In this document: piece after piece, positions 52,046 through 64,000 of the stretch
How positions within the stretch are numbered: the stretch's first letter is position 1
Layout of the letters: each line of letters starts with the position of its first letter
Assembly (NCBI GenBank): GCA_963716725.1
Contig: CAVQUB010000007.1
Span: forward strand, 96,001 to 160,000
DNA length: 64,000 nt
Direction of reading: 5' to 3'
Source of the DNA: an uncultured delta proteobacterium
GTDB taxonomy: Bacteria > Myxococcota_A > Polyangia > Polyangiales > Polyangiaceae
Made by a program: the position numbers and the translations under genes
Notes under the pieces: generated by a model
Seen by the model: the letters and a program-made list of their open reading frames with translations, nothing else
Database searches by the model: none
Told to the model about the DNA's origin: nothing

Positions 52046-52207
52046 CGGCTCCGCCTTCCTGTCGCGACTTGACGCGCGTCTTTGGTGCAACGAAGAGCCG
52101 TCGCCTTGGCGGCGTCGGTCCCGATTTGGGCTGCGAGCGGACGGAGCCTCACGGTCTCTGTCTAGCGGAGTCCGCTCCGGTTGCCAAAGGCCAGGCTCCA
52201 GACCGTC

Positions 52208-52290
52208 GCACAACAACCTGGCGTTCACCCGCGAACGCCGCGCATCATCGTAACGGACGGCGTGGCGCTTTTTGAGGCCGCTCGCTCGCC
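52208..52290 (-). repeat. Half attC (family A; only the L'/R' arm remains)
   Basis: gcacaac-aacctggc-gttcacccgcgaacgccg matches family A; partner arm absent. Confidence 0.75.
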
Positions 52291-52401
52291 CGAGCCGTCA
52301 TCGCGCCAGAAGTCGCGGCGTTGTTCCTCGGTGTGCCGCGACCGATAGCTGGCGCGGAAGCTAGCCTCAGCCCTTCGACGCCAACGCTGCGGCCGGCAGT
52401 G

Positions 52402-53250
52402 TCACCGCTCGAGCGGCCGGTACAGTGGGCTGTTGCACCTGGGGTCGAGCCCGAGATCGCGCACCCGGCAACGCCCGCCAACGCAGGCCGCCTGCAACGA
52501 ATCATCAATGCCCTCGGAGAGGCAATCTGGACAGCCGCCCTTGGTCTTGCAACGAGCATTCTTGCGGCGATCAACGGCGATCACCTGGTCTCCGGACGCG
52601 ACGCCGCAGTAGCAGCAGTCCTCGGCCATCAGCGCGCAGTGGGCATCTGCCGAGCAACTGGCCAGCGCTGCCGGCATCACGCGGCGCAAGAGCTTTGGGG
52701 GTCGGACTCTTGGGCACGACGACTTGGTCGTGACGTCGCAACGCGTCTCGACCACGACGCAGCGACGGTTCACACATTCGGCGCTCAAGCCCGACGGAAA
52801 TCCCGAGGCGCACGCCGGGCAGTTGGAGGTGCAGAGCACGTCGTCACCGGAGTCGACGGCCCGCACCTGCTGTGCGCTCAGGGCACCGCAAGGCGGGCAA
52901 CACGCGGCGGGGCGCAGCAGGCATTGATCGTTGCGCGTACAGGAGGCGCGGCGCGCGCTCTGTCCGAGCACGCTGCGCTTGCACTCCGGTCGCGCGGCAT
53001 CGACACCAGCAGCGCGACCGGAATCAGCGTCAGGGACCGAGGTGGAATCGCGCGACGCATCGGGACTGGAAGCGTCGACCGCATCCTGCGCATCCGCCTC
53101 CGGAGCCCAGGTGGCGCTGGCGCCCGGTCCGTCAGCCGCCTCGCCGCCGGCATCCCCAGGCATCAGGGGTTGCGGGGCTTTGGGCGCCCGACAATGCGTG
53201 AGCGCGAGGGCCACGCCGAAGCTCGTCAGGGCGAAGCGAGTGCGACTCAT
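52402..53250 (-). CDS. Cys-rich lipoprotein with two tandem ~10-Cys domains
   Basis: Lipobox-like LTHC, D-A rich linker, duplicated SC..C..CC..C..AV..C..CP.C..AEC/AAC..RC pattern. Confidence 0.7.
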   Translation of the reverse strand: MSRTRFALTSFGVALALTHCRAPKAPQPLMPGDAGGEAADGPGASATWAPEADAQDAVDASSPDASRDSTSVPDADSGRAAGVDAARPECKRSVLGQSARRASCTRNDQCLLRPAACCPPCGALSAQQVRAVDSGDDVLCTSNCPACASGFPSGLSAECVNRRCVVVETRCDVTTKSSCPRVRPPKLLRRVMPAALASCSADAHCALMAEDCCYCGVASGDQVIAVDRRKNARCKTKGGCPDCLSEGIDDSLQAACVGGRCRVRDLGLDPRCNSPLYRPLER

Positions 53251-53449
53251 CGGCCTCGCCTCGAGCTTACGCCAAAGCCGCGACTTTGCGGCGCGAGAGC
53301 TGAGGAGGCAGGCTACGCTCTTTCGCGTTCGTGGATGGACAGATCGTGTTGGCGATCACTGGGACGTGTGGCATCCCGCCGATCGCCGCGAGCCCGGGCG
53401 AGTTCAAGTCGTTCAAAGAGCTGGTCGTCCAGAACTGGGTGCGTGGACG

Positions 53450-53560
53450 CTAGGAGGTCTGGATCAAACGATCGTGGAGCCAGAACACCTCCGTCGGCGA
53501 GAGGTGCCTCATGCCAGGGGTCGATAGAGCTCTGCGTTCCTGCGGAGCATCTGTTCGGCG
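53450..53560 (-). pseudogene. Remnant of antitoxin/Doc (Fic-family) toxin junction
   Basis: ...AEQMLRRNAELYRPLA* overlaps (ATGA) MRHLSPTEVFWLHDRLIQTS*; resembles antitoxin C-terminus and Doc N-terminus. Confidence 0.6.
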
Positions 53561-53683
53561 CGCGTCGGGCGCGCCGACCGGTGCGATCCGGGCGGGGGAT
53601 CACGAGCGGAAGCGAGGCCCTACAACCGCTGTGTGGCACGGCGGTCGGGGCGCCGGGCCCCCGCTGTAACGTGGCGGAGTCTG

Positions 53684-53849
53684 TATCAACGATCCGGCGT
53701 TCACCCGCGAACGCCGAGACCAAGAGATACCAGAGAGCGCGGCGCTGCACACGCGGGCGAGTGCCGCAGACAGGGCGAGCGCCCGCGACGCGCGACGGAC
53801 GGAGAAGTCGGCAAGGCCGGCGTTCGTCGGGTGGAACGGCCAGTTATGC
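53684..53849 (-). repeat. attC10 (family A, 166 bp)
   Basis: Minus strand GCATAAC-TGGCC-GTTCCACCCGACGAACGCCG...CGGCGTTCGCGGGTGAAC-GCCGGATC-GTTGATA. Confidence 0.9.
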
Positions 53850-53886
53850 GGCTGTCGGCAGGGCGCAATCGAGCTATGCTTCAGGC

Positions 53887-54129
53887 ATGGCGCAGTCACA
53901 CCCCGACGAGTTGCTTTGGCGGCGCGCGTTGGCGCTTCCACCGGACAAGCGCCTGGCGCTTGCTACCGAGCTGCTGAACAGTGTGGAAGAGCGCCACGAC
54001 GAACGCTGGGAGCGCGAGTGGCTCGCGGAATTGGACCGACGAAGCGCAGCGATCGACCGCGGGGAAGACAAGCTCGAGGACTGGGAGACGGTGAAGGCCA
54101 GGTTGCGGGCCGAGCTGCGCGCAAGGTGA
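53887..54129 (+). CDS. Addiction-module antitoxin (ParE-associated family)
   Basis: ALALPPDKRLALATELLNSV...WLAELDRRSAAIDRGE..DWETVKARL. Confidence 0.85.
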   Translation: MAQSHPDELLWRRALALPPDKRLALATELLNSVEERHDERWEREWLAELDRRSAAIDRGEDKLEDWETVKARLRAELRAR

Positions 54130-54265
54130 AGACGCGGTTTTCCGACGGCTCCACAGGTTCCCGTTCGTCATCCACTTTCGTCTCGGCGAAAACGAGGTCT
54201 TCGTCCTGGCCGTTGCCCACGGGAAGCGCAAACCAGGCTACTGGGTCTCGCGCGACGAACCTTAG
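54126..54265 (+). pseudogene. ParE/RelE toxin, internally deleted and frameshifted
   Basis: GTGA-coupled MKTRF start joined out of frame to RRLHRFPFVIHFRLGENEVFVLAVAHGKRKPGYW*. Confidence 0.85.
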
Positions 54266-54268
54266 GCC

Positions 54269-54423
54269 GAATAGCGATTGAGGCGTTCAGCAGCGAACGC
54301 CAGAAACAACATCACCAGATTCTACCCCGCGCGAGACCCTGGGGAACAGCCGAAGGGGTGCAGGGCGCCACGACATCACCAGTCAGAAAGCCAGCGCTCG
54401 TCTGCTGCAACCTCCTGTTAGGC
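54269..54423 (-). repeat. attC9 (family B, 155 bp; R' GTT mutated to GCT)
   Basis: GCCTAAC-AGGAG-GTTGCAGCAGACGAGCGCTGG...TGGCGTTCGCTGCTGAAC-GCCTCAATC-GCTATTC. Confidence 0.85.
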
Positions 54424-54436
54424 GGTCCGTCGAGAA

Positions 54437-54820
54437 CTAGCGCCACTCGCCCACCATGCCCGCCTTTCGATAGTCCAGTCCGCGCGAGCGTACCGCCAAT
54501 CCATTCGCATACGGCACGGCCCACGCGAACGCCGCGGCCTCGCGCCCTGTACGCAGACGGACCACGCCGTCCGCTCCGAGTTTGCGGGCATGGTCGGCCA
54601 ACTCGTCGAGAAGAGGATCCATCGAGCCGTACGTCCCACGCTTCAGTTTGATTTCACCGAGGTACTCCAACGGAGCGCCCGGCGGCGGCACATCCTTCGT
54701 GAAGAACACGGGACCTGCGTGCGGCGGGTATCGAGACTCGGGCATCTCGGTGCTTGTGCCGCACGCTGCAACGCTGCCGAGGACGGCGGCGAGAACAAGC
54801 GGGGACACACACCTAGCCAT
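54437..54820 (-). CDS. Cassette lipoprotein, YbjQ/heavy-metal-binding-like fold
   Basis: Lipobox VAAC; YLGEI...LADHARKLGADGVV...GLAVR pattern. Confidence 0.7.
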   Translation of the reverse strand: MARCVSPLVLAAVLGSVAACGTSTEMPESRYPPHAGPVFFTKDVPPPGAPLEYLGEIKLKRGTYGSMDPLLDELADHARKLGADGVVRLRTGREAAAFAWAVPYANGLAVRSRGLDYRKAGMVGEWR

Positions 54821-54830
54821 TATGCAATCC

Positions 54831-54996
54831 GCCTAACGAAACGGCGTTCACCCGCGAACGCCGAGACTCAAGATAACAGACGGCACAGCGCTGCACACGC
54901 GGGCGAGTGCCGCATCAGAGTGGTCATCCGCGGCCGCAGAATGGACGGTGAAACTCGGCATGGCCGGCGTTCGGCGGGTGCAACGGCCAGATATGC
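54831..54996 (-). repeat. attC8 (family A, 166 bp; R'' AAC mutated to ATC)
   Basis: GCATATC-TGGCC-GTTGCACCCGCCGAACGCCG...GGGTGAAC-GCCGTTTC-GTTAGGC; close to attC2. Confidence 0.85.
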
Positions 54997-55005
54997 GGTG
55001 CCTGG

Positions 55006-55314
55006 TCACCTGACCCCTTCGAGTCGATCAATCCAGTACAGCGGCGCCTGGTTGCCCAAGAACGCGACGACCACTACCCGGGGATCGGTGATGTAGATGA
55101 TCGACACGGGGAACGTGCGCAGAACGACGTGCCGAACGCCCGGAGGGACGCCCTCGAGCACCCACGGAGCGCCGAGGTGGGGAGATTCGTCGATCAGCCC
55201 GAAGATTTCCTGGGCTTCGTCGACGAAGCGGGAACCGTAGCCGGACCGCTTCTCTTCGTACCAGAGCGCGTTTGCGGCGAGTTCACGCGGGGCAGCGTCC
55301 AGAACCTCAGGCAC
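55006..55314 (-). CDS. ParE/RelE-family toxin
   Basis: WYEEKRSGYGSRF...SPHLG...RHVVLRTFPVSIIY...VVVVAF...YW; overlaps antitoxin stop. Confidence 0.85.
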   Translation of the reverse strand: MPEVLDAAPRELAANALWYEEKRSGYGSRFVDEAQEIFGLIDESPHLGAPWVLEGVPPGVRHVVLRTFPVSIIYITDPRVVVVAFLGNQAPLYWIDRLEGVR

Positions 55315-55546
55315 GGCGAGAAGCCACTGCGGCTCGAGCCCTGGACAGCGCGTCTTGCGCAGAAACGGTCTTCGCCGTGCCGTCGCGAAGGCGCTCCACT
55401 CTGCGCGCGATCTCACCAACCCAAGCGTCGTGCGCAGATGGCGCCGGCGTTGGAGTCAAGCTCTCCGCCAGCCGGAGCGCGAGCTGAGCGCGCTCGTCGT
55501 CGGGAAGCTCAAGTGCCTCTGCAAGAATGAGGTCGATGCGAGACAT
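55307..55546 (-). CDS. Addiction-module antitoxin (ParE-associated family)
   Basis: ALELPDDERAQLALRLAESL...AWVGEIARRVERLRDG. Confidence 0.88.
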   Translation of the reverse strand: MSRIDLILAEALELPDDERAQLALRLAESLTPTPAPSAHDAWVGEIARRVERLRDGTAKTVSAQDALSRARAAVASRRA

Positions 55547-55629
55547 CGCGCCAAGCGTACCACGTCGTGTGGGGGGGCGAATCGGGCGTCGACGGTCCAG
55601 TTGAAAGCGCGCGCCATCTCCTCGCGGCC

Positions 55630-55713
55630 GGATAACGTATCGGCGTTCTGCGGCGAATGCCAGACCGAGCGCAGCGAGGGAGGGCAGTCGTCCGCAGCAA
55701 CGCCTTGTTAGCC
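55630..55713 (-). repeat. attC7 (short type, 84 bp)
   Basis: GGCTAAC-AAGGC-GTTGCTGCGGACGACTGCC...GGCATTCGCCGCAGAAC-GCCGATAC-GTTATCC; vapC stop lies in R''. Confidence 0.88.
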
Positions 55714-56109
55714 AGCCTCAGCAGACCAGTTCACGACCCTGAGCCCCTTCACCTTGGAGAAGTGCTTGAGGTTGTTGCTTACCAGCGTGAAGTTCAGCGC
55801 GAGCGCATGGGACGCGATCAACGTGTCCAGGGTGCCAATGGGTGTGCCCTTCGTCTCGAGGGCTGCCTGAACGCGACCGAAGGCGGCGGCAGCGGCGTCG
55901 TCAAAGGGCACGACAGCAACCGTGCGACTGAACGCGTCGATGATGCCGTGGAGTTTCCGAGAGCGCCGACGCTCGGCCCCGAATCGCAGTTCCGCCAGGG
56001 TGAGTGCGCTTATGGACACCTCCGACGGCTGATGGTCGGTGAGCCGGGCGGCAGCGGGGCCTTGGCCGCGCAGGATGTAGCTGACGGTGTCGGTATCGAG
56101 GAGAAACAT
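55708..56109 (-). CDS. vapC: VapC PIN-domain toxin
   Basis: LLDTDTVSY, LAELRFG, IGTLDTLIASHA, LVSNNLKHF. Confidence 0.93.
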   Translation of the reverse strand: MFLLDTDTVSYILRGQGPAAARLTDHQPSEVSISALTLAELRFGAERRRSRKLHGIIDAFSRTVAVVPFDDAAAAAFGRVQAALETKGTPIGTLDTLIASHALALNFTLVSNNLKHFSKVKGLRVVNWSAEAG

Positions 56110-56113
56110 GGCC

Positions 56114-56353
56114 CTAATCCCCGAATGGATCGCGCGGAGCGGAGGCGTCACGCGCTGGCCGAGGAATCTCGCCGGACCACGCCCCAATGCACGCCAAGAA
56201 ATCCTCCGGCCACGCGTCCACGGGCTCGAGGATGATGCGACGTCCCTCGCGGCGAACGACCACTTCCGCCTGGGTGTCGGGGAAGCGGCAGTCCTTCGGA
56301 AGTCGGACGGCCTGGCTTCCACCATTCCTGAAAAGCTTGGCTCGAGCGCTCAC
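56114..56353 (-). CDS. vapB: VapB (AbrB/MazE-type) antitoxin
   Basis: AKLFRNGGSQAVRLPKDCRF. Confidence 0.93.
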   Translation of the reverse strand: MSARAKLFRNGGSQAVRLPKDCRFPDTQAEVVVRREGRRIILEPVDAWPEDFLACIGAWSGEIPRPARDASAPRDPFGD

Positions 56354-56359
56354 TTGGGA

Positions 56360-56389
56360 AAGTATAGACGCATGTCTATACTTCGTCAA
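56360..56389 (-). promoter_or_regulatory. Sigma70-type promoter of vapBC with overlapping operator palindrome
   Basis: TTGACG-N17-TATACT on the minus strand; AAGTATAGAC-GCAT-GTCTATACTT perfect 10-bp inverted repeat 56360-56383. Confidence 0.85.
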
Positions 56390-56419
56390 GCAGCGCCGGC
56401 GCGTGTGTTTCTGCGGTCT

Positions 56420-56459
56420 GGCTAGCCTACCGACGTTCAGCAGCGACGTCTTGTTAGCC
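56420..56459 (-). repeat. attC6, collapsed 40-bp remnant (L'' arm and loop deleted, R' GCT)
   Basis: GGCTAAC-AAGAC-GTCGCTGCTGAAC-GTCGGTAG-GCTAGCC. Confidence 0.75.
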
Positions 56460-57038
56460 GGCCGTCGGAGGTCGAGCGGTCGCCAGTATGTCTTGAGCGG
56501 TCATCGAGGATGCTTCGTTCGGGTGCAGGGCGGTAAGGCGCCAGTCCGCCGCGGCCTGGTCGTCGATCAAGATGTCGGGCTTCGCCAAGAAGTCGACGAA
56601 GCAATCCGCAATGCCCAGCTCGACTGCGGATCGGTGGGCGTATGGCGCGCCTCCGACGCTCCAGCAATAGAGAACGGCGTTGGCCGCGTGAAGGTCACGA
56701 ACACGTTGTACGACGCTGCTCATCGGGATGCGCTTCGAACCGAAGGAGCGAACGAGCGTGTCATCGACGTCGACGAAGATGATAGGCGTGTTGGGCGCGG
56801 TGCGGTCGCCAGGCGCCTGCTGCAGACGTTGTCTGGCAGCGTCGAGCATCTCCGGATAGTTGGTGCTGAGGGGCTCCACCAGCGTGGTCTCGAGCTGGCA
56901 CTCGATCTGCCAGAGCACGTGCTGCTCAGCCGAATCGAGCACCCGGACGGCGCCGCCTGAACCGGCTCGGTGGAGCATCTCGAACAGAAGGAGAGCCGCG
57001 TCTGGCTCAAGTTCGAGCTTGTGGCTTGGCGGGCTCAT
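56454..57038 (-). CDS. Two-domain cassette protein: small helical domain + HAD-superfamily phosphatase-like domain
   Basis: IIFVDVDDTL (HAD motif I), WS, KPD..IDD; stop in R'' box. Confidence 0.75.
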   Translation of the reverse strand: MSPPSHKLELEPDAALLLFEMLHRAGSGGAVRVLDSAEQHVLWQIECQLETTLVEPLSTNYPEMLDAARQRLQQAPGDRTAPNTPIIFVDVDDTLVRSFGSKRIPMSSVVQRVRDLHAANAVLYCWSVGGAPYAHRSAVELGIADCFVDFLAKPDILIDDQAAADWRLTALHPNEASSMTAQDILATARPPTAG

Positions 57039-57047
57039 CTCGGGTCC

Positions 57048-57212
57048 GCCCAACGAGACACACGTTCACCCGCGAACGCGCGAGGTGATCGTAACAGAGC
57101 GCGGGGCATTTTCGAGGCCGGCGCGTGCCGTTGAAAATTGGGCGCCGGCCGCCGCGGGACGGACGGTGAAGTCGGCAAGGCGCGCGTTCGGCGGGTGCAA
57201 CGTCCGTTATGC
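57048..57212 (-). repeat. attC5 (family A, 165 bp)
   Basis: GCATAAC-GGAC-GTTGCACCCGCCGAACGCGCG...CGCGCGTTCGCGGGTGAAC-GTGTGTCTC-GTTGGGC. Confidence 0.88.
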
Positions 57213-57560
57213 GGCATCTCGCGGCGTCACCGCCCCGGGCGCCCGCACGAACATCACCAACGCGACCATGCTGGGGACGAAGAAGCCCAGCACTCCGAGT
57301 GCGGTGAAATTCATGGCCTCGGCGATGCCCTCGCCGAGCAGTCGTGCCTTTTGTGACGGATCCACAGCCTCACCACCGACGGCAACAGAAGCCTTGAACG
57401 CGCCGAGCGCAATACCGGTCGCAGGTGCAAGGAAGAGGCACAGGAGGCTGAGAAGAAGGACGCGGCGAAGGGTCTTGCGGGGCTGGGACGACCAGCGCGC
57501 AACTATGGACGCGGCGACGAACCCAAAGCTGGTGAGGCCGATCAGAACCCACCAGTGCAC
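57207..57560 (-). CDS. Small 3-TM protein with MotA/TolQ/ExbB-like C-terminal hairpin
   Basis: GGGGAG RBS + GTG; AVGGEAVDPSQKARLLGEGIAEAMNFTALG; stop in R''. Confidence 0.7.
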   Translation of the reverse strand: MHWWVLIGLTSFGFVAASIVARWSSQPRKTLRRVLLLSLLCLFLAPATGIALGAFKASVAVGGEAVDPSQKARLLGEGIAEAMNFTALGVLGFFVPSMVALVMFVRAPGAVTPRDAA

Positions 57561-57569
57561 GATCTCCCC

Positions 57570-57735
57570 TGCCAACGATCCGGCGTTCACCCGCGAACGC
57601 CGAGACCAAGAGATACCAGAGTGCGCGGCGCTGCACACGCGGGCGCGTACCGCTTGATGATGGGCACCGGCGCATTCGGCGAGGCGCCAAGGCAAGGCAC
57701 GACCGGCCTTCGGCGGGTTCATCGCCTTGTTAGCC
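57570..57735 (-). repeat. attC4 (family A, 166 bp)
   Basis: GGCTAAC-AAGGC-GATGAACCCGCCGAAGGCCG...CGGCGTTCGCGGGTGAAC-GCCGGATC-GTTGGCA. Confidence 0.85.
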
Positions 57736-57754
57736 AGGCCTCTGCCGCAGCGAC

Positions 57755-57783
57755 TTGACATAGTTATCGTTTCGGATAACTAT
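57755..57783 (+). promoter_or_regulatory. Promoter and operator of the toxin-first TA pair
   Basis: TTGACA at 57755-57760; ATAGTTATC-N6-GATAACTAT perfect inverted repeat 57760-57783; -10 element weak. Confidence 0.75.
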
Positions 57784-57789
57784 TGGCTT

Positions 57790-58128
57790 GTGAGTTTCGT
57801 CGTCCGCGAGTACGTCGATGAAAGCGGACGCATCCCCTTCCGGGATTGGCTAGGAGAGCTAGACACGTCGGTCCGCGCTCGCGTGCAGGCGAGAGTTTTG
57901 CGATTTGAAACCGGCAACCTCGGCGACCACAAGGAGGTCGGAGAAGGGGTCTGGGAGGCGCGGCTAGACTTCGGTCCCGGGTACCGCTTGTACTTCGGGA
58001 GAAGCGGCCGCGAGGTCGTTCTGCTCTTGCTGGGTGGCGACAAGACGTCTCAAAGGAAGGACATCCGGCGAGCTCGAGAGTTTTGGGCGACGTACGTGAA
58101 GGAACTGAAGCATGGCAAGACGCAGTAG
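57790..58128 (+). CDS. HigB-like RelE/ParE addiction-module killer protein
   Basis: GRIPFRDWL, GNLGDHKEVGEGVWEARLDFGPGYRLYF, LLLLGGDKTSQRKDI. Confidence 0.92.
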   Translation: MSFVVREYVDESGRIPFRDWLGELDTSVRARVQARVLRFETGNLGDHKEVGEGVWEARLDFGPGYRLYFGRSGREVVLLLLGGDKTSQRKDIRRAREFWATYVKELKHGKTQ

Positions 58129-58423
58129 AGACTGGAACGAAGGACTGGCCGAAGACCTTCAGGACCCGGAGTTCGCGCGACAGTTCTTGACGGCTGCCGT
58201 GGAAGACGGCGTGCCCCTGAAGATTGCTCTTGCGAAGGTCATTCGTGCCACAGGTGTGAAGGAGTTCGCGGAGAGCGTCGGGATGCTGAGCCCGAATGTG
58301 CTGAGGGCGATTGACCCGAAGCACAACCCAACGCAGGAAACACTCGAACGTCTACTGAAGCCATTCGGGCTTCGAATTGGCCTCGCCCAGATCAAGCCTA
58401 GGACGAAGGGTCGCGCGGCATAG
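58112..58423 (+). CDS. HTH antitoxin (HigA-like addiction-module antidote)
   Basis: LQDPEFARQFL, C-terminal HTH, NPTQETLERLLKPFGLRI; overlaps toxin. Confidence 0.88.
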   Translation: MARRSRDWNEGLAEDLQDPEFARQFLTAAVEDGVPLKIALAKVIRATGVKEFAESVGMLSPNVLRAIDPKHNPTQETLERLLKPFGLRIGLAQIKPRTKGRAA

Positions 58424-58437
58424 CGTCCGCCTCTCCA

Positions 58438-58600
58438 GCTCAACGATCCGGCGTTCACCCGCGAACGCCGGAGATCATCGTAGCAGACGGCGGGGCGCAT
58501 CAGAGCGGGCGCGTGCCGCAGACAGTGAAGGCGCCCGTGACGCGCGACGTGCGGTGAAACTCGCCTGGCCGGCGTTCGGCGGGCGGAACGTGAGTTATGA
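58438..58600 (-). repeat. attC3 (family A, 163 bp)
   Basis: TCATAAC-TCAC-GTTCCGCCCGCCGAACGCCGG...CCGGCGTTCGCGGGTGAAC-GCCGGATC-GTTGAGC. Confidence 0.87.
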
Positions 58601-58622
58601 GGCGGGCTTGCTCACTGGCTTG

Positions 58623-58734
58623 TCACTCAACCGCGGCGTCGTCCGTGGACGAATCGCCCTCAGAACCGTCGTCGAGCGACGAGTCAAGCGCAGCGTCCGG
58701 AAGCTGTGTGTCCGTAGGGCTGTCGGGCTTGGTA
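58623..58734 (-). pseudogene. 3' remnant of a cassette gene (Asp/Ser/Ala-rich tail) cut by the IS
   Basis: TKPDSPTDTQLPDAALDSSLDDGSEGDSSTDDAAVE* directly after the IS end. Confidence 0.55.
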
Positions 58735-58765
58735 TGAAGTTCCCCCGCTTCCGTGGACAGCATGA

Positions 58766-59646
58766 TTATGCCGCAGCCTTCACTGTTCGTGAACGCAATT
58801 CGAACTCGATCGGGTTGAGGTAGCCGAGGTGAGAGTGGCGCCGCTCGATGTTGTAGAAGTTCTCGATGTAGTCGCCGATGGAGGTCTCGGCCTGGACGGT
58901 ATCGACGTACAGCTCATGGTCTACGAGTTCGGCGCGCAAGGTGGCGAAGAAGCTCTCCGCGACTGCGTTGTCCCAGCAGTCGCCCTTGCGGCTCATGCTC
59001 GCCACCAGACCGTGCGCGGCCAGCTCCGCTCGGTATGCGTCGCTGGCGTAGGGGCTTCCGCGATCGGAGTGGTGCACGAGGCCTGCGGCAGGGCGACGCG
59101 ACAGAAGGCCCTTTCGGAGCGCTTCGAGAGCCAGCAAGCTGTGTCGTTGTTCTGGCTCGCGGCCCACGCAACAACCCGACGGGAGATAGAGGTCGAGCAT
59201 CACGGCAAGAAACAGCCAGCCCTCGAGAGTCCAGATCGCAGTCACGTCGGTGACCCAGACGCGATCGGGAGCGGCGACTTCGAACTTCCGAGCGAGCACG
59301 TTGGGCGCGATCGGGTTCGAGTGTTTCGAATCGGTCGTCTTCCTGAAGCGGCGCTTCCGCCGCGCTTCGAGGCCGTTTTCCTGCATGAGCCGCTCCACTC
59401 GCTTCTTGCCGACGCGGATCCCCTGGGCTCGCAGTTCCGCATGCACGCGCGGGCTACCGTAGGTGCTTGCGGCTGCGCGTGTGGACCGCAGCGACCTGGA
59501 CCGCGAGCTGTGCGTCGGCGCGTAACACGAGGCGCCTGGGGCCGCTTACGCCATGCATGGAACCCGCTGCAAGAGACCTCGAGAACGCGGCACAGCATCG
59601 TGATTGGGTAGAAGGCCTTCTCGGCGAGGATGAACACGAACTTCAT
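58766..59646 (-). pseudogene. IS3 OrfB DDE transposase with several indels
   Basis: WVTDVT, HHSDRGSPY, CWDNAVAESFF; frame breaks near 59520, 59465 and a pair at about 59185/59140. Confidence 0.9.
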
Positions 59647-59954
59647 GTGCTCTCCTTCGCGAAGAAGGCCGCCGCTTTTTTCAGGATTTCGCGCTCCATT
59701 TGCAGGCGCTTGTTGTCCCGCCGCAGTTGCGCGAGTTCCGCCCGCTCGTCACTCGTGAGCGCACCTGGCGGTCCGTTGCCGGCGTCGATGTCGGCCCGTT
59801 TCACCCACTCGCGCAAGGCCGTCTCGGTCAGGTCCAGGTCCCCGGCCACCTGCGTGACGGTCCGATCTCCGACCTTGCAGAGCCGCACTGCCCCGGCCTT
59901 GAACTCGGGGGTGAATGCTCGTCGCTTCCTACGCTGCTTCTTTCGCTTGTCCAT
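59643..59954 (-). CDS. IS3 OrfA (HTH + leucine zipper)
   Basis: RRAFTPEFKAGAVRL...EREILKKAAAFFAKE. Confidence 0.93.
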   Translation of the reverse strand: MDKRKKQRRKRRAFTPEFKAGAVRLCKVGDRTVTQVAGDLDLTETALREWVKRADIDAGNGPPGALTSDERAELAQLRRDNKRLQMEREILKKAAAFFAKEST

Positions 59955-60011
59955 GGATCACTCCAGGCGCATTGTCGCGCGAGTTGGGGTGTCCACGAAA
60001 CCGGGGGAAGA

Positions 60012-60413
60012 TCACTCGGGCGCTCCCCCGTTCGCCAGACGGCGATTCTCCTCATCCAGGTACTCATCGAAGTGCTCAAGAGAGTTGCGCACTTTGGAGT
60101 TGAGGAGCTCATCCATTGGCACGCCGTCGAGAATGGAACGCAAGGTCTTGGCGCGCCGTTGCCGGAAGCTGTGCGAGACAGCGGTTTCCGATTTGCGGCG
60201 CTGCGAGGGTTCGACGAGCTTTCTCAAATTCGCGCTCGCGATTAGCGCCACTGAGATATTCGTATGGAGTTTCAAGGATACTTGGAGCGTGAATCCCGTG
60301 TCGGGAACGGCGGCTTCGTTGAAGACGGCGTCACATGCGTCGACGATCGCATGAGCGAGCCACACGATCTCGTGAAGGCAAACACCGAAGAGTGGCGTGT
60401 TGGTGATGTCCAC
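60012..60413 (-). pseudogene. Cassette gene with R-X4-H (HEPN-like) motif, truncated by the IS
   Basis: VRNSLEHFDEYLD; its stop TGA is the first three bases of the IS. Confidence 0.65.
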
Positions 60414-60430
60414 GATTCGATCCTGCGTCG

Positions 60431-60595
60431 GTCTAACGCTCTGGCGTTCACCCGCGAACGCCGAGACTCAAGGTAGCAGACGGCACGGCGCTGCACACGC
60501 GGGCGAGTGCCGCATCAGAGTGGTCGTCCGCGGTTGCGGAACGGACGGTGAAGACCGGAAGACCGGCGGTCGGCGGGTGAAACGCCTTGTTATGC
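60431..60595 (-). repeat. attC2 (family A, 165 bp)
   Basis: GCATAAC-AAGGC-GTTTCACCCGCCGACCGCCG...CGGCGTTCGCGGGTGAAC-GCCAGAGC-GTTAGAC. Confidence 0.9.
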
Positions 60596-60900
60596 CGTGA
60601 CAGAATCACGGTGATTCTCGGGTCGGAGACTTTCGGCGCCGCCCGACGCGTCGACGCCGTGGTCTTGGATCTTCTCGACATCTGCGACCGCAACTGTCGC
60701 TGCTGCTTCTGCGGGCACAGTCGGCAAGACATCGGTGGTCTTGGTGCAGCGCTGTCGTTCAACCGCCGGAACTTTTTCCCGCCGCGACGACGCTCGGGGC
60801 TCGCCTCGCGCGACCGGATGCGTCGGAGACTTTCGGCGCTGCCCACGGCAAGACCGTGAAGTCTCGCCAGCGCTGCCCGCTGCATAAGAAATGAACAGCG
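60596..60900. other. Cassette 2 cargo: repeat- and hairpin-rich, probably non-coding
   Basis: 23-bp direct repeat at 60622 and 60822, several inverted repeats, no recognisable protein. Confidence 0.55.
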
Positions 60901-61084
60901 GCATAACGATTGAGGCGTTCAGCAGCGAACGCCAGGAACAACACTACCCAACAATACCACGCCGACAGGCGCGGGGGTGGCGCCGAGGTTCGCAAGAACC
61001 GAGGCGCTAAGCCCCGCGCGCAGGGCGCCACGACATCAGCCAGTCGGAAAGCCAGCGATCGTCTGCTGCAACGTCCTGTTAGGC
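60901..61084 (-). repeat. attC1 (family B, 184 bp)
   Basis: GCCTAAC-AGGAC-GTTGCAGCAGACGATCGCTGG...CTGGCGTTCGCTGCTGAAC-GCCTCAATC-GTTATGC. Confidence 0.9.
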
Positions 61085-61495
61085 AGTACTCCATGAGTCG
61101 AGATCTGTGACCGGACTGGGAAGTCGGCCTTCGAGCCATTTCGCACAATCAGCCGGCGTGAACTCGGTGTCGGTTGACTCGATGACCCACGAAAGGAACT
61201 CAACGCCGCCGTTCATGTAGGGTGGTGGGGACACCGGCATGAACACTGTGGGAAGGCGCTCGTCAATCGACATGTAGTTGAGCACGTGGCCCAGTTCCTG
61301 GACAACTCGCCACGCGAGGCCGTGTGTCGTGTCGAGGGAGAACTTCACCCACCAGAGGCCACCATCAGATCCACACCCGATGGACCGACGCCCTGCCGGA
61401 AGCTCGATTGCAGGCAGCTGCTCAAGAAAACGCAGGAGCGGCTCGAACGATTCTTCCTCCCCCAAATGACACCACCAAATCTGCCTAACCTCCAT
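61079..61495 (-). CDS. Cassette 1 hypothetical protein (ATG supplied by the attI region; also in frame with intI)
   Basis: WWVKFSLD...[14 protein letters not shown]...[14 protein letters not shown] in R'' of attC1. Confidence 0.7.
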
Positions 61496-61520
61496 TCTAC
61501 CTCGGACGCTTCCGCGAAGC
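61483..61520 (-). other. Putative attI (core GTTAGGC at 61489-61483)
   Basis: GTTAGGCAG is the exact complement of the CTGCCTAAC end of cassette 1; no attC hairpin upstream. Confidence 0.75.
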
Positions 61521-61645
61521 ACCGGGGCTCGGCTCGTGCCGTCCCCCATGATCTTCAGCGCTTGCGCCCGACGTGGCGCGTCCGGGGTCGCGTTATGCGG
61601 TTCCGCATAGCCTGATAGGTGGTGCCCGAGGGGGAGGTTGATTGC

Positions 61646-62219
61646 GAGCTGGTCGAGGGGGCTCCGAACGCCATGTCCGACGCGGTTCAGGACGTGCGTG
61701 TAGATCATGGTCGTGGTGACGTCCGCGTGGCCGAGCAGCTCTTGGATGGTACGGATGTCGTACCCGGCTTCGAGCAAGTGGGTGGCGAACGAGTGCCGGA
61801 GCGCGTGGCAGCTGGCCGGCTTGGGGAGGCCCGGGCCGGCTTCCAGTGCGGCCCGCCGTACCGCGCGTTGCAGCACAGTTTGGTGGGTGTGGTGGCGCCG
61901 GCGCTCGCCGGTGACGCGATCCCTGTAGTGACGTTCCGCGGGGAACACCCACTGCCACGCCCACTCACGCGGGGCATCCGGATACTTGCGCGCGAGCGCG
62001 TGAGGCAGCTCGACGCTGCCCACGCCGTTCCGCAAGTCGATGTCGTGCTGGGATCGGACGGTTGCGAGGTGACGCATCAGGGGCTCGAGCATCGAGGCGG
62101 GGAGTGGGGTCACGCGGTCCTTCTTCCCCTTCCCGCAGCGGACCGTGATCTCGTGGCGATGCAGGTCGATGTCCTCGACGCGCAAGCTCGCGCACTCCAT
62201 CAGGCGCAAGCCTCCGCAG
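61646..62219 (-). pseudogene. intI: Integron integrase, catalytic half only (N-terminal domain missing, no stop codon)
   Basis: [14 protein letters not shown], IntI-specific [54 protein letters not shown]. Confidence 0.93.
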
Positions 62220-62288
62220 GATGTCGGAGACGTGCCCGGCGAAAGCAATCTTCGTCGCCGGCGATCGCCACCCTGCCGCGCCCGCGGC

Positions 62289-63710
62289 TCAGGCGGCCTT
62301 CGCACCGGGAGCGTTGCGGAGCTCACCCAGGATGGCGTCAATGGTCTTCTTGGCGTCGCCGAAGAGCATCTGGGTGTGCTCTTTGAAGAAGAGCGGGTTC
62401 TCGACGCCCGCGTAGCCGCTGGCCATGCTCCGCTTCATCACCACGCAGGCCTTGGCCTTCCACACCTGGAGCACGGGCATGCCGTAGATGGGGCTCGACC
62501 GATCGTCGAGTGCGCCCGGGTTCACGATGTCGTTGGCTCCGATCACCAGCACCGCGTCGGTCTCGGGGAAGTCCTCGTTGATCTCGTCCATCTCGAGCAC
62601 GATGTCGTACGGGACCTTCGCTTCGGCCAAGAGCACGTTCATGTGGCCGGGAAGTCGGCCCGCGACCGGGTGAATCGCGAAGCGCACCTTCACGCCGCGC
62701 TCGCGCAAGAGGGCCGCCACCTCCCACAGCGGGTACTGCGCTTGGGCAACGGCCATGCCGTAGCCCGGCACGACCACCACGCTCTTGGCGTTGGCGAGCA
62801 GCGCTGCCGTGTCGGTCGCGGTGACGCTGACCACCTCGCCCTGGGGTTCGCCGGAGGTCTTGGCCGGGGCTGCGCCTTCTTCGGCGCCAAAGCCGCCGAA
62901 GATCACGCTGACGATGGATCGGTTCATCGCCTTGCACATGATGTAGCTGAGAATGGCGCCGCTCGATCCGACCAGCGCGCCAGTGATGATCAAGAGATCG
63001 TTGGCGAGCATGAAGCCCGCCGCGGCAGCCGCCCAGCCAGAGTAACTGTTGAGCATCGACACGACCACCGGCATGTCGGCGCCGCCGATGGCCATCACCA
63101 GGTGCACGCCGAGCACTCCGGCGATCGCCGTCATGATCAGCAGCGGCTGCAGGCCTCCGTGCTCCGGCGCCGAAAGGAACTGCGCTCCGAGCCAGAGGCA
63201 AGCCGCGACCATGGTGAGGTTCGCGAGGTGGCGTCCTGGGAGCAGCAGCGGCTTGCTGCGGATCAGACCTTGGAGCTTTCCGTAGGCGACGATTGAGCCG
63301 GTGAAGGTGATGGCGCCGATGAACACGCCGATGAACACCTCGATCTCGTGGATCACCGCCTCGGCGCCGCTCAGATCGGAGGGAGGCGCCAGGAAACTCG
63401 CGATGCCCACCAGCACCGCGGCCGCGCCCACGAAGCTGTGCAAGATGGCGACGAGCTGGGGCATGTTGGTCATGGCCACGCGCGCGGCGAGAAGCGCGCC
63501 GATCACTGCGCCGACGCCGATGGCGCCCGCCAAGACGGGGTAGCCGGTGACCGAGGGGTGCGCGGCGGTGGCGACCAGCGCGATGATCATGCCGACGATG
63601 CCGAAGACGTTGCCGCGTCCTGCGGATTGCTGCTTCGACAGCCCGCCGAGGCTCGAGATGAAGAGCACGCCGGCGACGAGGTACGCGATGTTCTGAAGGC
63701 TCTGCGGCAT
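62289..63710 (-). CDS. pntB: NAD(P) transhydrogenase subunit beta
   Basis: [48 protein letters not shown]. Confidence 0.98.
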
Positions 63711-63716
63711 GGTCGA

Positions 63717-64000
63717 TCACCTCTGGAACATGCGCAGCATGCGCTGCGTGACCAGGAAGCCTCCCGAGATATTGATGGTGGCGATCAGCACAGCGATGGC
63801 GCCGAGCGCTGTCACCGGGGCGGTGACGGGGCCGGAGACCTGAAGCATGCCGCCGATCAGGATGATGCCGCTGATGGCGTTGGTGACGCTCATCAGTGGC
63901 GTGTGCAGCGCGGGCGTGACGTTCCAGACCACCTGCCAACCGATGAAACAGGCCAGCACGAACACCGTGAAGTGCGCGAGGAAGCTGGGCGGTGCTACCA
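63717..64000 (-). CDS. pntA: NAD(P) transhydrogenase subunit alpha, membrane part (5' end outside window)
   Basis: [35 protein letters not shown]. Confidence 0.95.

Follow-up and report, generated by a model that had tools for sequence, protein, structure and literature searches.

A decayed integrase gene as the probable origin of an open reading frame crossing attI in a reverse chromosomal integron

The element described here, located in a window of 64,000 nucleotides of a contig from an uncultured delta proteobacterium, is a decayed 'reverse' chromosomal integron, in which a single open reading frame of 420 codons (61079..62341, minus strand, as found in the list of open reading frames and their translation) extends from the remainder of the integrase gene intI through attI into the first gene cassette. 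We assign a probability of about 0.88 to the interpretation that this frame reflects the read-through of a decayed pseudogene and not a protein tail that is switched by cassettes. In the course of events that we propose, the locus would be the ancestral pntB-linked reverse integron of the genus with intI transcribed toward attI and the cassettes, and the intact intI of the genus would end in a tail of 49–54 codons that covers the accessory region of attI and stops at a TAG before the crossover point. The copy in the window would have been inactivated by a deletion of about 0.46 kb, which took its start together with about 147 codons of the N-terminus, and a deletion of one nucleotide in the tail (at about 61537/61538) would carry the frame past the TAG. 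The shifted frame would then meet the ATG of attI and the phase of cassette 1 by chance, thus producing one frame of 420 codons, terminated by the TAA of attC1. Cassette 1 itself would be translated from its own TTG at 61465, and the full-length IntI of a second contig of the genome, C8, probably continues to act on the array in trans.

The part of the frame that resembles IntI ends with the sequence GVRSPLDQL at 61646 and is followed by a further 50 open codons, after which the frame passes the attI core, continues as the protein of cassette 1 and terminates at the TAA 61081-61079 within the R'' box of attC1 (61084-61078), a course that had been described, with about 52 open codons, in the first-pass annotation. 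On the minus strand, the junction reads GAGG (61503-61500), an out-of-frame TAG (61499-61497), a single A (61496), ATG (61495-61493), GAG (61492-61490) and the core GTTAGGC (61489-61483), so that the TAG precedes the ATG by 1 nt and the core by 7 nt. The presence of an ATG behind GAGG, 6 nt before the core and on its non-cassette side, is thus equally confirmed. Statistically, an open frame of this extent is unremarkable: at 66–70% G+C, a random stretch of 50 codons is open with a probability of 0.30–0.38 and a stretch of 15 codons with a probability of 0.70–0.75, only about 14 stop-free codons are needed to reach the ATG of attI after the frameshift, and a cassette gene would be in phase by chance in 1/3 of the cases.

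The assignment as a reverse integron is manifested in the arrangement of its parts. intI and the cassettes reside on the same strand with attI located at the 3' end of intI, and it is the minus strand that holds the open reading frames of cassettes 1 and 3 as well as the bulged '' arms of the attC sites. The attI core (61483..61489, minus strand), with crossover between its G and the following TT, conforms to the pattern GTTRRRY beside intI and marks the position where the homology between the platforms of contigs C7 and C8 ends and where both contigs carry different cassettes. Directly upstream of the platform we find a complete pntB encoding the beta subunit of NAD(P) transhydrogenase (62289..63710, minus strand; PF02233, E 4.3e-196), which together with the four-TM part of pntA occupies 62289-64000. 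In three of four relatives from the same genus, pntA and pntB are likewise located directly upstream of a full-length intI on the same strand (L010, L011 and L013; not L012), and this synteny indicates that the locus in the window is the syntenic and probably ancestral integron and the one on C8 a second copy. No terminator-like site was detected when the interval from pntB to the intI remnant was scanned, and pntAB transcripts may therefore run into the array.

What is left of intI encodes the catalytic domain (61646..62215, minus strand, residues 43-232 of the 420-codon frame) and matches the IntI-specific model TIGR02249, which includes the insertion specific to IntI, with 279.1 bits (cut-off 265, E 5e-83) and PF00589 with an E-value of 3.5e-30. 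The match to TIGR02249 covers positions 128-315 of 315, equivalent to the C-terminal 60% of the gene only, and the N-terminal core-binding domain and the start codon are both absent. Lacking its 5' part, the copy is classified as a remnant or pseudogene and not as an integrase gene. By DNA alignment and blastn, the region 61480-62217 is 93.2% identical to the full-length copy on C8; this identity breaks at the joint of an internal deletion (62217..62218, unstranded) and again exactly at the attI core. Since the homology to C8 stops at 62217 and a match to its upstream region resumes at 62234-62254, an internal segment of about 0.46 kb has been lost, and with it the start codon and about 147 codons of the N-terminus. 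The retained upstream piece (62234..62254, minus strand; blastn 21/22 to L009 2689-2710) is near-palindromic and corresponds to a 22-nt motif located 34-55 nt upstream of the GTG start of the full-length C8 paralog (L009). The motif possibly acts as an operator or promoter; among nine loci checked, L009 was the only one with its exact 15-nt core, which was not found in the loci of the orthologs. In comparison to the C8 paralog, the remnant displays 16 synonymous and 16 non-synonymous changes (dN/dS 0.32, and not 1) and has kept its frame open over 190 codons, which suggests that the decay is recent or that part of the divergence predates it.

A second lesion is located in the 3' tail of intI, which overlaps the accessory region of attI (61500..61645, minus strand, frameshifted). 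In alignment A1, one base is missing from the window copy (GGCA-CGAG vs GGCGCCGAG) at about 61537/61538, 38 nt upstream of the TAG, as a consequence of which the TAG at 61499-61497 is out of frame and skipped. The tails of the orthologs are too diverged for a base-by-base alignment of their DNA, and that the change is a loss in the window copy is concluded from the TAG being in frame in all five intact genes. The first-pass annotation had proposed to search 61480-61660 for an indel or a lost stop, and this deletion is what the region contains.

The intact genes against which this polarity was judged are the C8 paralog and the full-length orthologs of four genomes of the same genus (G001, G002, G004 and G005). 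Within the assembly of 7.9 Mb in 35 contigs, which is 84% complete, contig C8 carries a full-length intI (443.8 bits, model positions 1-315) in an open reading frame of 385 codons that ends with PKRPR and TAG, followed by A, ATG, GAC and GTTAGGC. In each of the five genes, translation stops at the TAG of an invariant block, GGTAGAATGnnnGTTA, following tails of 49, 50, 50, 54 and 51 codons after SPLDxL (the locus L015 of G020 and the fragmentary G003 loci L018, L022, L024 and L025 are not part of this count). In the window, the block GGTAGAATG (61493..61501, minus strand) contains the ancestral stop TAG of intI, one A and the ATG of attI; it is identical in six out of six loci (window, C8, G001, G005, G002 and G004) and occurs exactly twice in the 7.9-Mb genome. 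As the crossover point lies between the TAG and the cassettes, the insertion of a cassette cannot change an intact IntI. The claim of the first-pass annotation that IntI has no stop codon and a C-terminus that is switched by each integration is thus not supported, and the read-through is confined to the window copy with its lost start and N-terminal codons and its deletion upstream of the TAG. A stop in orthologs, which had been named beforehand as evidence against that claim, is present, although 49–54 codons past SPLDQL and not directly after it. The related proposal that attI resides within the intI frame survives in part, in the sense that the intact open reading frame of the genus covers the whole accessory region of attI and ends 7 nt before the core.

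The G+C content by codon position is 0.68/0.65/0.72 in the tail compared to 0.72/0.46/0.86 in the body of the gene, and this flat profile makes the tail look shaped more by a function of the DNA than of the protein. Since the TAG has remained in frame in all five genes despite changes in the length of the tail, we argue that selection keeps the stop in place. Among 80 IntI loci of other species, 66 of which could be scored, the stop is found within 11 codons of SPxD in 57, after 13–17 codons in three and after 27–64 codons in six, and in many of these loci the first GTTRRRY is located about 180–200 nt past the stop, in agreement with the distance of about 198 nt given for the reverse integrons of Treponema (PMC7691350). 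The long tails of 27–64 codons are found in the unrelated loci L079, L093, L077, L055, L058 and L103, with the stop in L079 and L093 being placed about 17–24 nt before a core-like GTTAGCC or GTTATCC. Such tails in unrelated genes suggest that intI frames may have been extended over attI on more than one occasion.

The gene of cassette 1 comprises 128 codons and a stop and extends from a TTG to the TAA in the R'' box of attC1 (61079..61465, minus strand). Its protein has at least 3072 homologs at E <= 0.001 across many phyla, which, among the matches listed, are mostly 127–135 residues long and 70–85% identical, and thus standalone proteins of about 130 residues. The gene boundaries 61465..61079 follow from the N-termini of these homologs: in an alignment of 19, the initial methionine falls on the TTG of the window (61465-61463) in 17, and the remaining two contain 6–7 extra residues. 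The start of cassette 1 at an internal TTG or GTG, which the first-pass annotation had set against its own proposal, is in this way borne out in part. The family is characterized by the invariant motifs WWxKF, AWRxVQELG and PxSPPxYxNGG. We found no match of the protein in Pfam or NCBIfam, and the Atlas returned unnamed clusters only; with an AlphaFold model (pLDDT 78.9) as query, no fold in the PDB was detected at E <= 0.001, the best Foldseek E-value being 0.075.

Downstream of this gene, the array shows the features of attC sites, with R''/L'' and L'/R' boxes folding as imperfect hairpins, as apparent from the fold of attC1 and from the L-arm motifs. attC1 (184 nt, 60901..61084, minus strand) is delimited by the R'' box GCCTAAC and the R' box GTTATGC, its L arms are paired, the '' arm carrying the bulged bases, and its single-strand fold, in which R and L boxes are paired, has a predicted energy of –45.7 kcal/mol (z –3.81). 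A hairpin motif beside its R' box is common to other attC sites of the genome, and ten conserved L-arm motifs are found between 52220 and 60914 (60914, 60443, 58450, 57582, 54966, 54843, 54282, 53819, 53696 and 52220). Cassette 2 (60431..60900, minus strand, delimited by R-box positions, with attC2 at 60431-60595) is also part of the C8 array and is probably gene-less; the region 60796-60940 is 94% identical to positions 1-146 of L009, where an indel breaks the frame in C8. It is followed by the 133-residue open reading frame of cassette 3 (60012..60413, minus strand, from the list of open reading frames), which shows a G+C content by codon position of 0.62/0.40/0.72 and no match in Pfam, and then by an IS element within the array (58400-60010), whose first open reading frame (59643-59954, minus strand) matches HTH_Tnp_1 and precedes one of 226 residues. 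The C8 array contains a near-identical copy of this first open reading frame, located downstream of its R' site at C8:386850. In total, the genome contains three clusters of attC sites, the array in the window (52200-60940, at least 8 R' sites), C8:385300-394012 (at least 8) and C34:138800-156100, which share a 20-nt L-arm hairpin; no match to intI above the cut-off was found near the cluster on C34. In the C8 array and at L001 141-830 (minus strand), several C8 cassettes resemble, as judged by eye, toxin-antitoxin pairs of PemK/MazF-like, Doc-like and ParE/RelE-like type, and two presumably encode lipoprotein-like signal peptides.

An addition that would be compatible with the decay of the window copy concerns the block with the stop of intI and the ATG of attI. 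In all six loci, the ATG of attI is invariant, with GAGG, AAGG or GGGG found 4 nt before it and a stop 1 nt upstream, and the open reading frame starting from it always crosses the crossover point (with lengths of 24, at least 49, 62, 138, 149 and 181 codons). A Shine-Dalgarno-like run and an ATG within attI that open a frame spanning the crossover recall ORF-11 of attI1, and the arrangement of GAGG, TAG, A and ATG might thus constitute a device for translational coupling like ORF-11 or ORF-18, the former of which works in this manner according to excerpts of the literature (PMC8876359, section 3.1). Ribosomes terminating intI at the TAG or initiating at the ATG of attI would then enter the first cassette and raise its translation. 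We regard this as improbable, since the block may as well be kept for reasons at the level of DNA, either for the binding of IntI or as a –10-like TAGAAT. A full sigma-70 promoter at the block was rejected, as a consensus scan of 60800-62500 found no promoter-like site. For the reverse integrons of Treponema, excerpts of PMC7691350 assign the start of transcription to the 3' end of attI, and with such a start the ATG of attI would be outside of the cassette mRNA. Coupling is also not reflected in the cassettes: about 5 of 11 are in frame, the first cassette gene of L013 is in another frame, and cassette 1 and the first C8 cassette each have a start of their own. The idea that cassettes are built to borrow the ATG of attI as a general rule was rejected, with about 5 of 11 first genes being in phase with the GTT, which is no better than chance, and one of these five containing an intervening stop. 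This survey encompassed the C7 and C8 arrays, L012 and L013, with genes assigned by eye from the length of open reading frames and G+C by codon position, and its list of cassettes is incomplete, as those whose attC does not contain the common L-arm motif were missed. The first cassettes found at the attI of C7 and C8 are both in phase with its ATG with no stop in between, which is mildly above chance.

A broader reading, which joins these observations and which we consider quite doubtful, holds that intI grew over its own attI and that GGTAGAATG, 3 nt before the core, would simultaneously serve as stop of intI, as start codon of the first cassette (or –10-like TAGAAT) and as part of the binding site of IntI. 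The newest cassette would then be tied, in its translation or transcription, to the expression of the integrase, and the in-frame TAG would act as a firewall against cassettes altering IntI. If so, the window copy would show the result of losing this firewall. The combination TAnnnT plus core within 420 nt after YTHV was found in five of the 80 other loci, in one case inside the gene, and is a lead only.

Returning to the decay of the window copy, its frameshift could in principle be an error of sequencing or assembly with the TAG being in frame in the real sequence, as two copies of about 93% identity in one genome can confuse assemblers and some contigs in X2 and X7 contain an extra C behind 61537. 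We find this highly unlikely. The site is not a homopolymer run. It was checked in assembled Logan contigs, where one of the runs possibly represents the very sample that yielded the genome. Three contigs, from runs belonging to three studies, extend across both the indel and the junction at attI without gaps, with one other letter in X1 record 2 (61272-61815) and none in X2 record 10 (61373-61587) and X5 record 18 (61359-61782). Those contigs that have the extra base show differences at 8–19 other positions and carry other cassettes, and thus originate from other copies or strains. Restoring the base would moreover still leave intI without its 5' part: X1 record 6 and X2 record 14 run across the joint of the deletion and on into pntB without differences (62183-62424 and beyond), and other contigs depart at 62217 into full-length intI sequence. 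Gaps in the coverage by mapped contigs, such as the one in X7 at 61116-61439, carry no weight. The same data confirm the crossover point, since in X2 record 11 and X7 records 26 and 27 (61481-61820) a closely related attI is joined to other first cassettes between G and TT, which in case of X2 record 11 is the start of cassette 2 of the window, and they suggest a turnover of cassettes in natural populations. That IntI would be stop-less by design, its frame crossing attI so that each inserted cassette provides a new C-terminal tail or fusion protein, is consistent with a frame free of stops between the IntI domain and cassette 1 and with the uninterrupted catalytic part, but is extremely improbable given that all five intact genes stop at the invariant TAG before the crossover, that the window copy lacks a start and model positions 1-127, that its read-through requires a one-nucleotide deletion unique to this copy, and that the homologs of cassette 1 are standalone proteins.

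Several components of the system have already been described, namely reverse integrons (in excerpts of PMC3607928, PMC7691350 and PMC9668308), intI pseudogenes beside arrays, and small open reading frames carried by attI (in excerpts of PMC8876359). The locus resembles reverse integrons of the Treponema denticola type, as portrayed in such excerpts, by the transcription of intI toward attI, by cassettes oriented in the same direction and by an attI region 3' of the catalytic domain of IntI, of about 150 nt in our case; about 198 nt separate the stop of intI from cassette 1 in Treponema (excerpts of PMC7691350), and a position of attI 'immediately downstream of intI' is reported for archaeal integrons. 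It differs from them in the intI frame of the genus, which runs 49–54 codons through attI to a TAG located 7 nt from the core. With CALINs or degenerate integrons that have an intI pseudogene it shares an attC array beside a non-functional intI remnant, an IS element inside the array and a complete integron elsewhere in the same genome; excerpts of Cury et al., 2016 (PMC4889954) list intI pseudogenes near 15 of 279 CALINs. Unlike in these, the remnant has kept attI, and a frameshift fuses its frame with the first cassette gene. The invariant stop and start block resembles in its layout ORF-11, ORF-17 and ORF-18 of attI1, where, by the excerpted description (PMC8876359, section 3.1), a Shine-Dalgarno-like run and an ATG are found inside attI on the non-cassette side and where the frame likewise crosses the crossover point, with the cassette setting its end. 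In contrast to attI1 of class 1, the attI described here belongs to another integron class and is in reverse orientation; its ATG is located 1 nt after the stop of intI and opens a frame that reads the GTT as a codon, with the core supplying no stop. A full-text search of openly accessible papers returned no account of reverse integrons in which the intI frame overlaps attI, nor of the invariant stop and start block.

For annotation, the long frame is to be treated as an intI pseudogene and a separate cassette gene, and not as a fusion protein, and fused frames of this kind are an expected artefact in reverse integrons of high G+C content. The biological point is a small one: in one genus, the frame of the intact intI covers the attI region, with its stop placed in an invariant stop and start block 7 nt ahead of the crossover core. 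If this block couples the expression of the first cassette to intI, the concept of ORF-11 would no longer be limited to clinical class 1 integrons but would apply to environmental reverse integrons as well.
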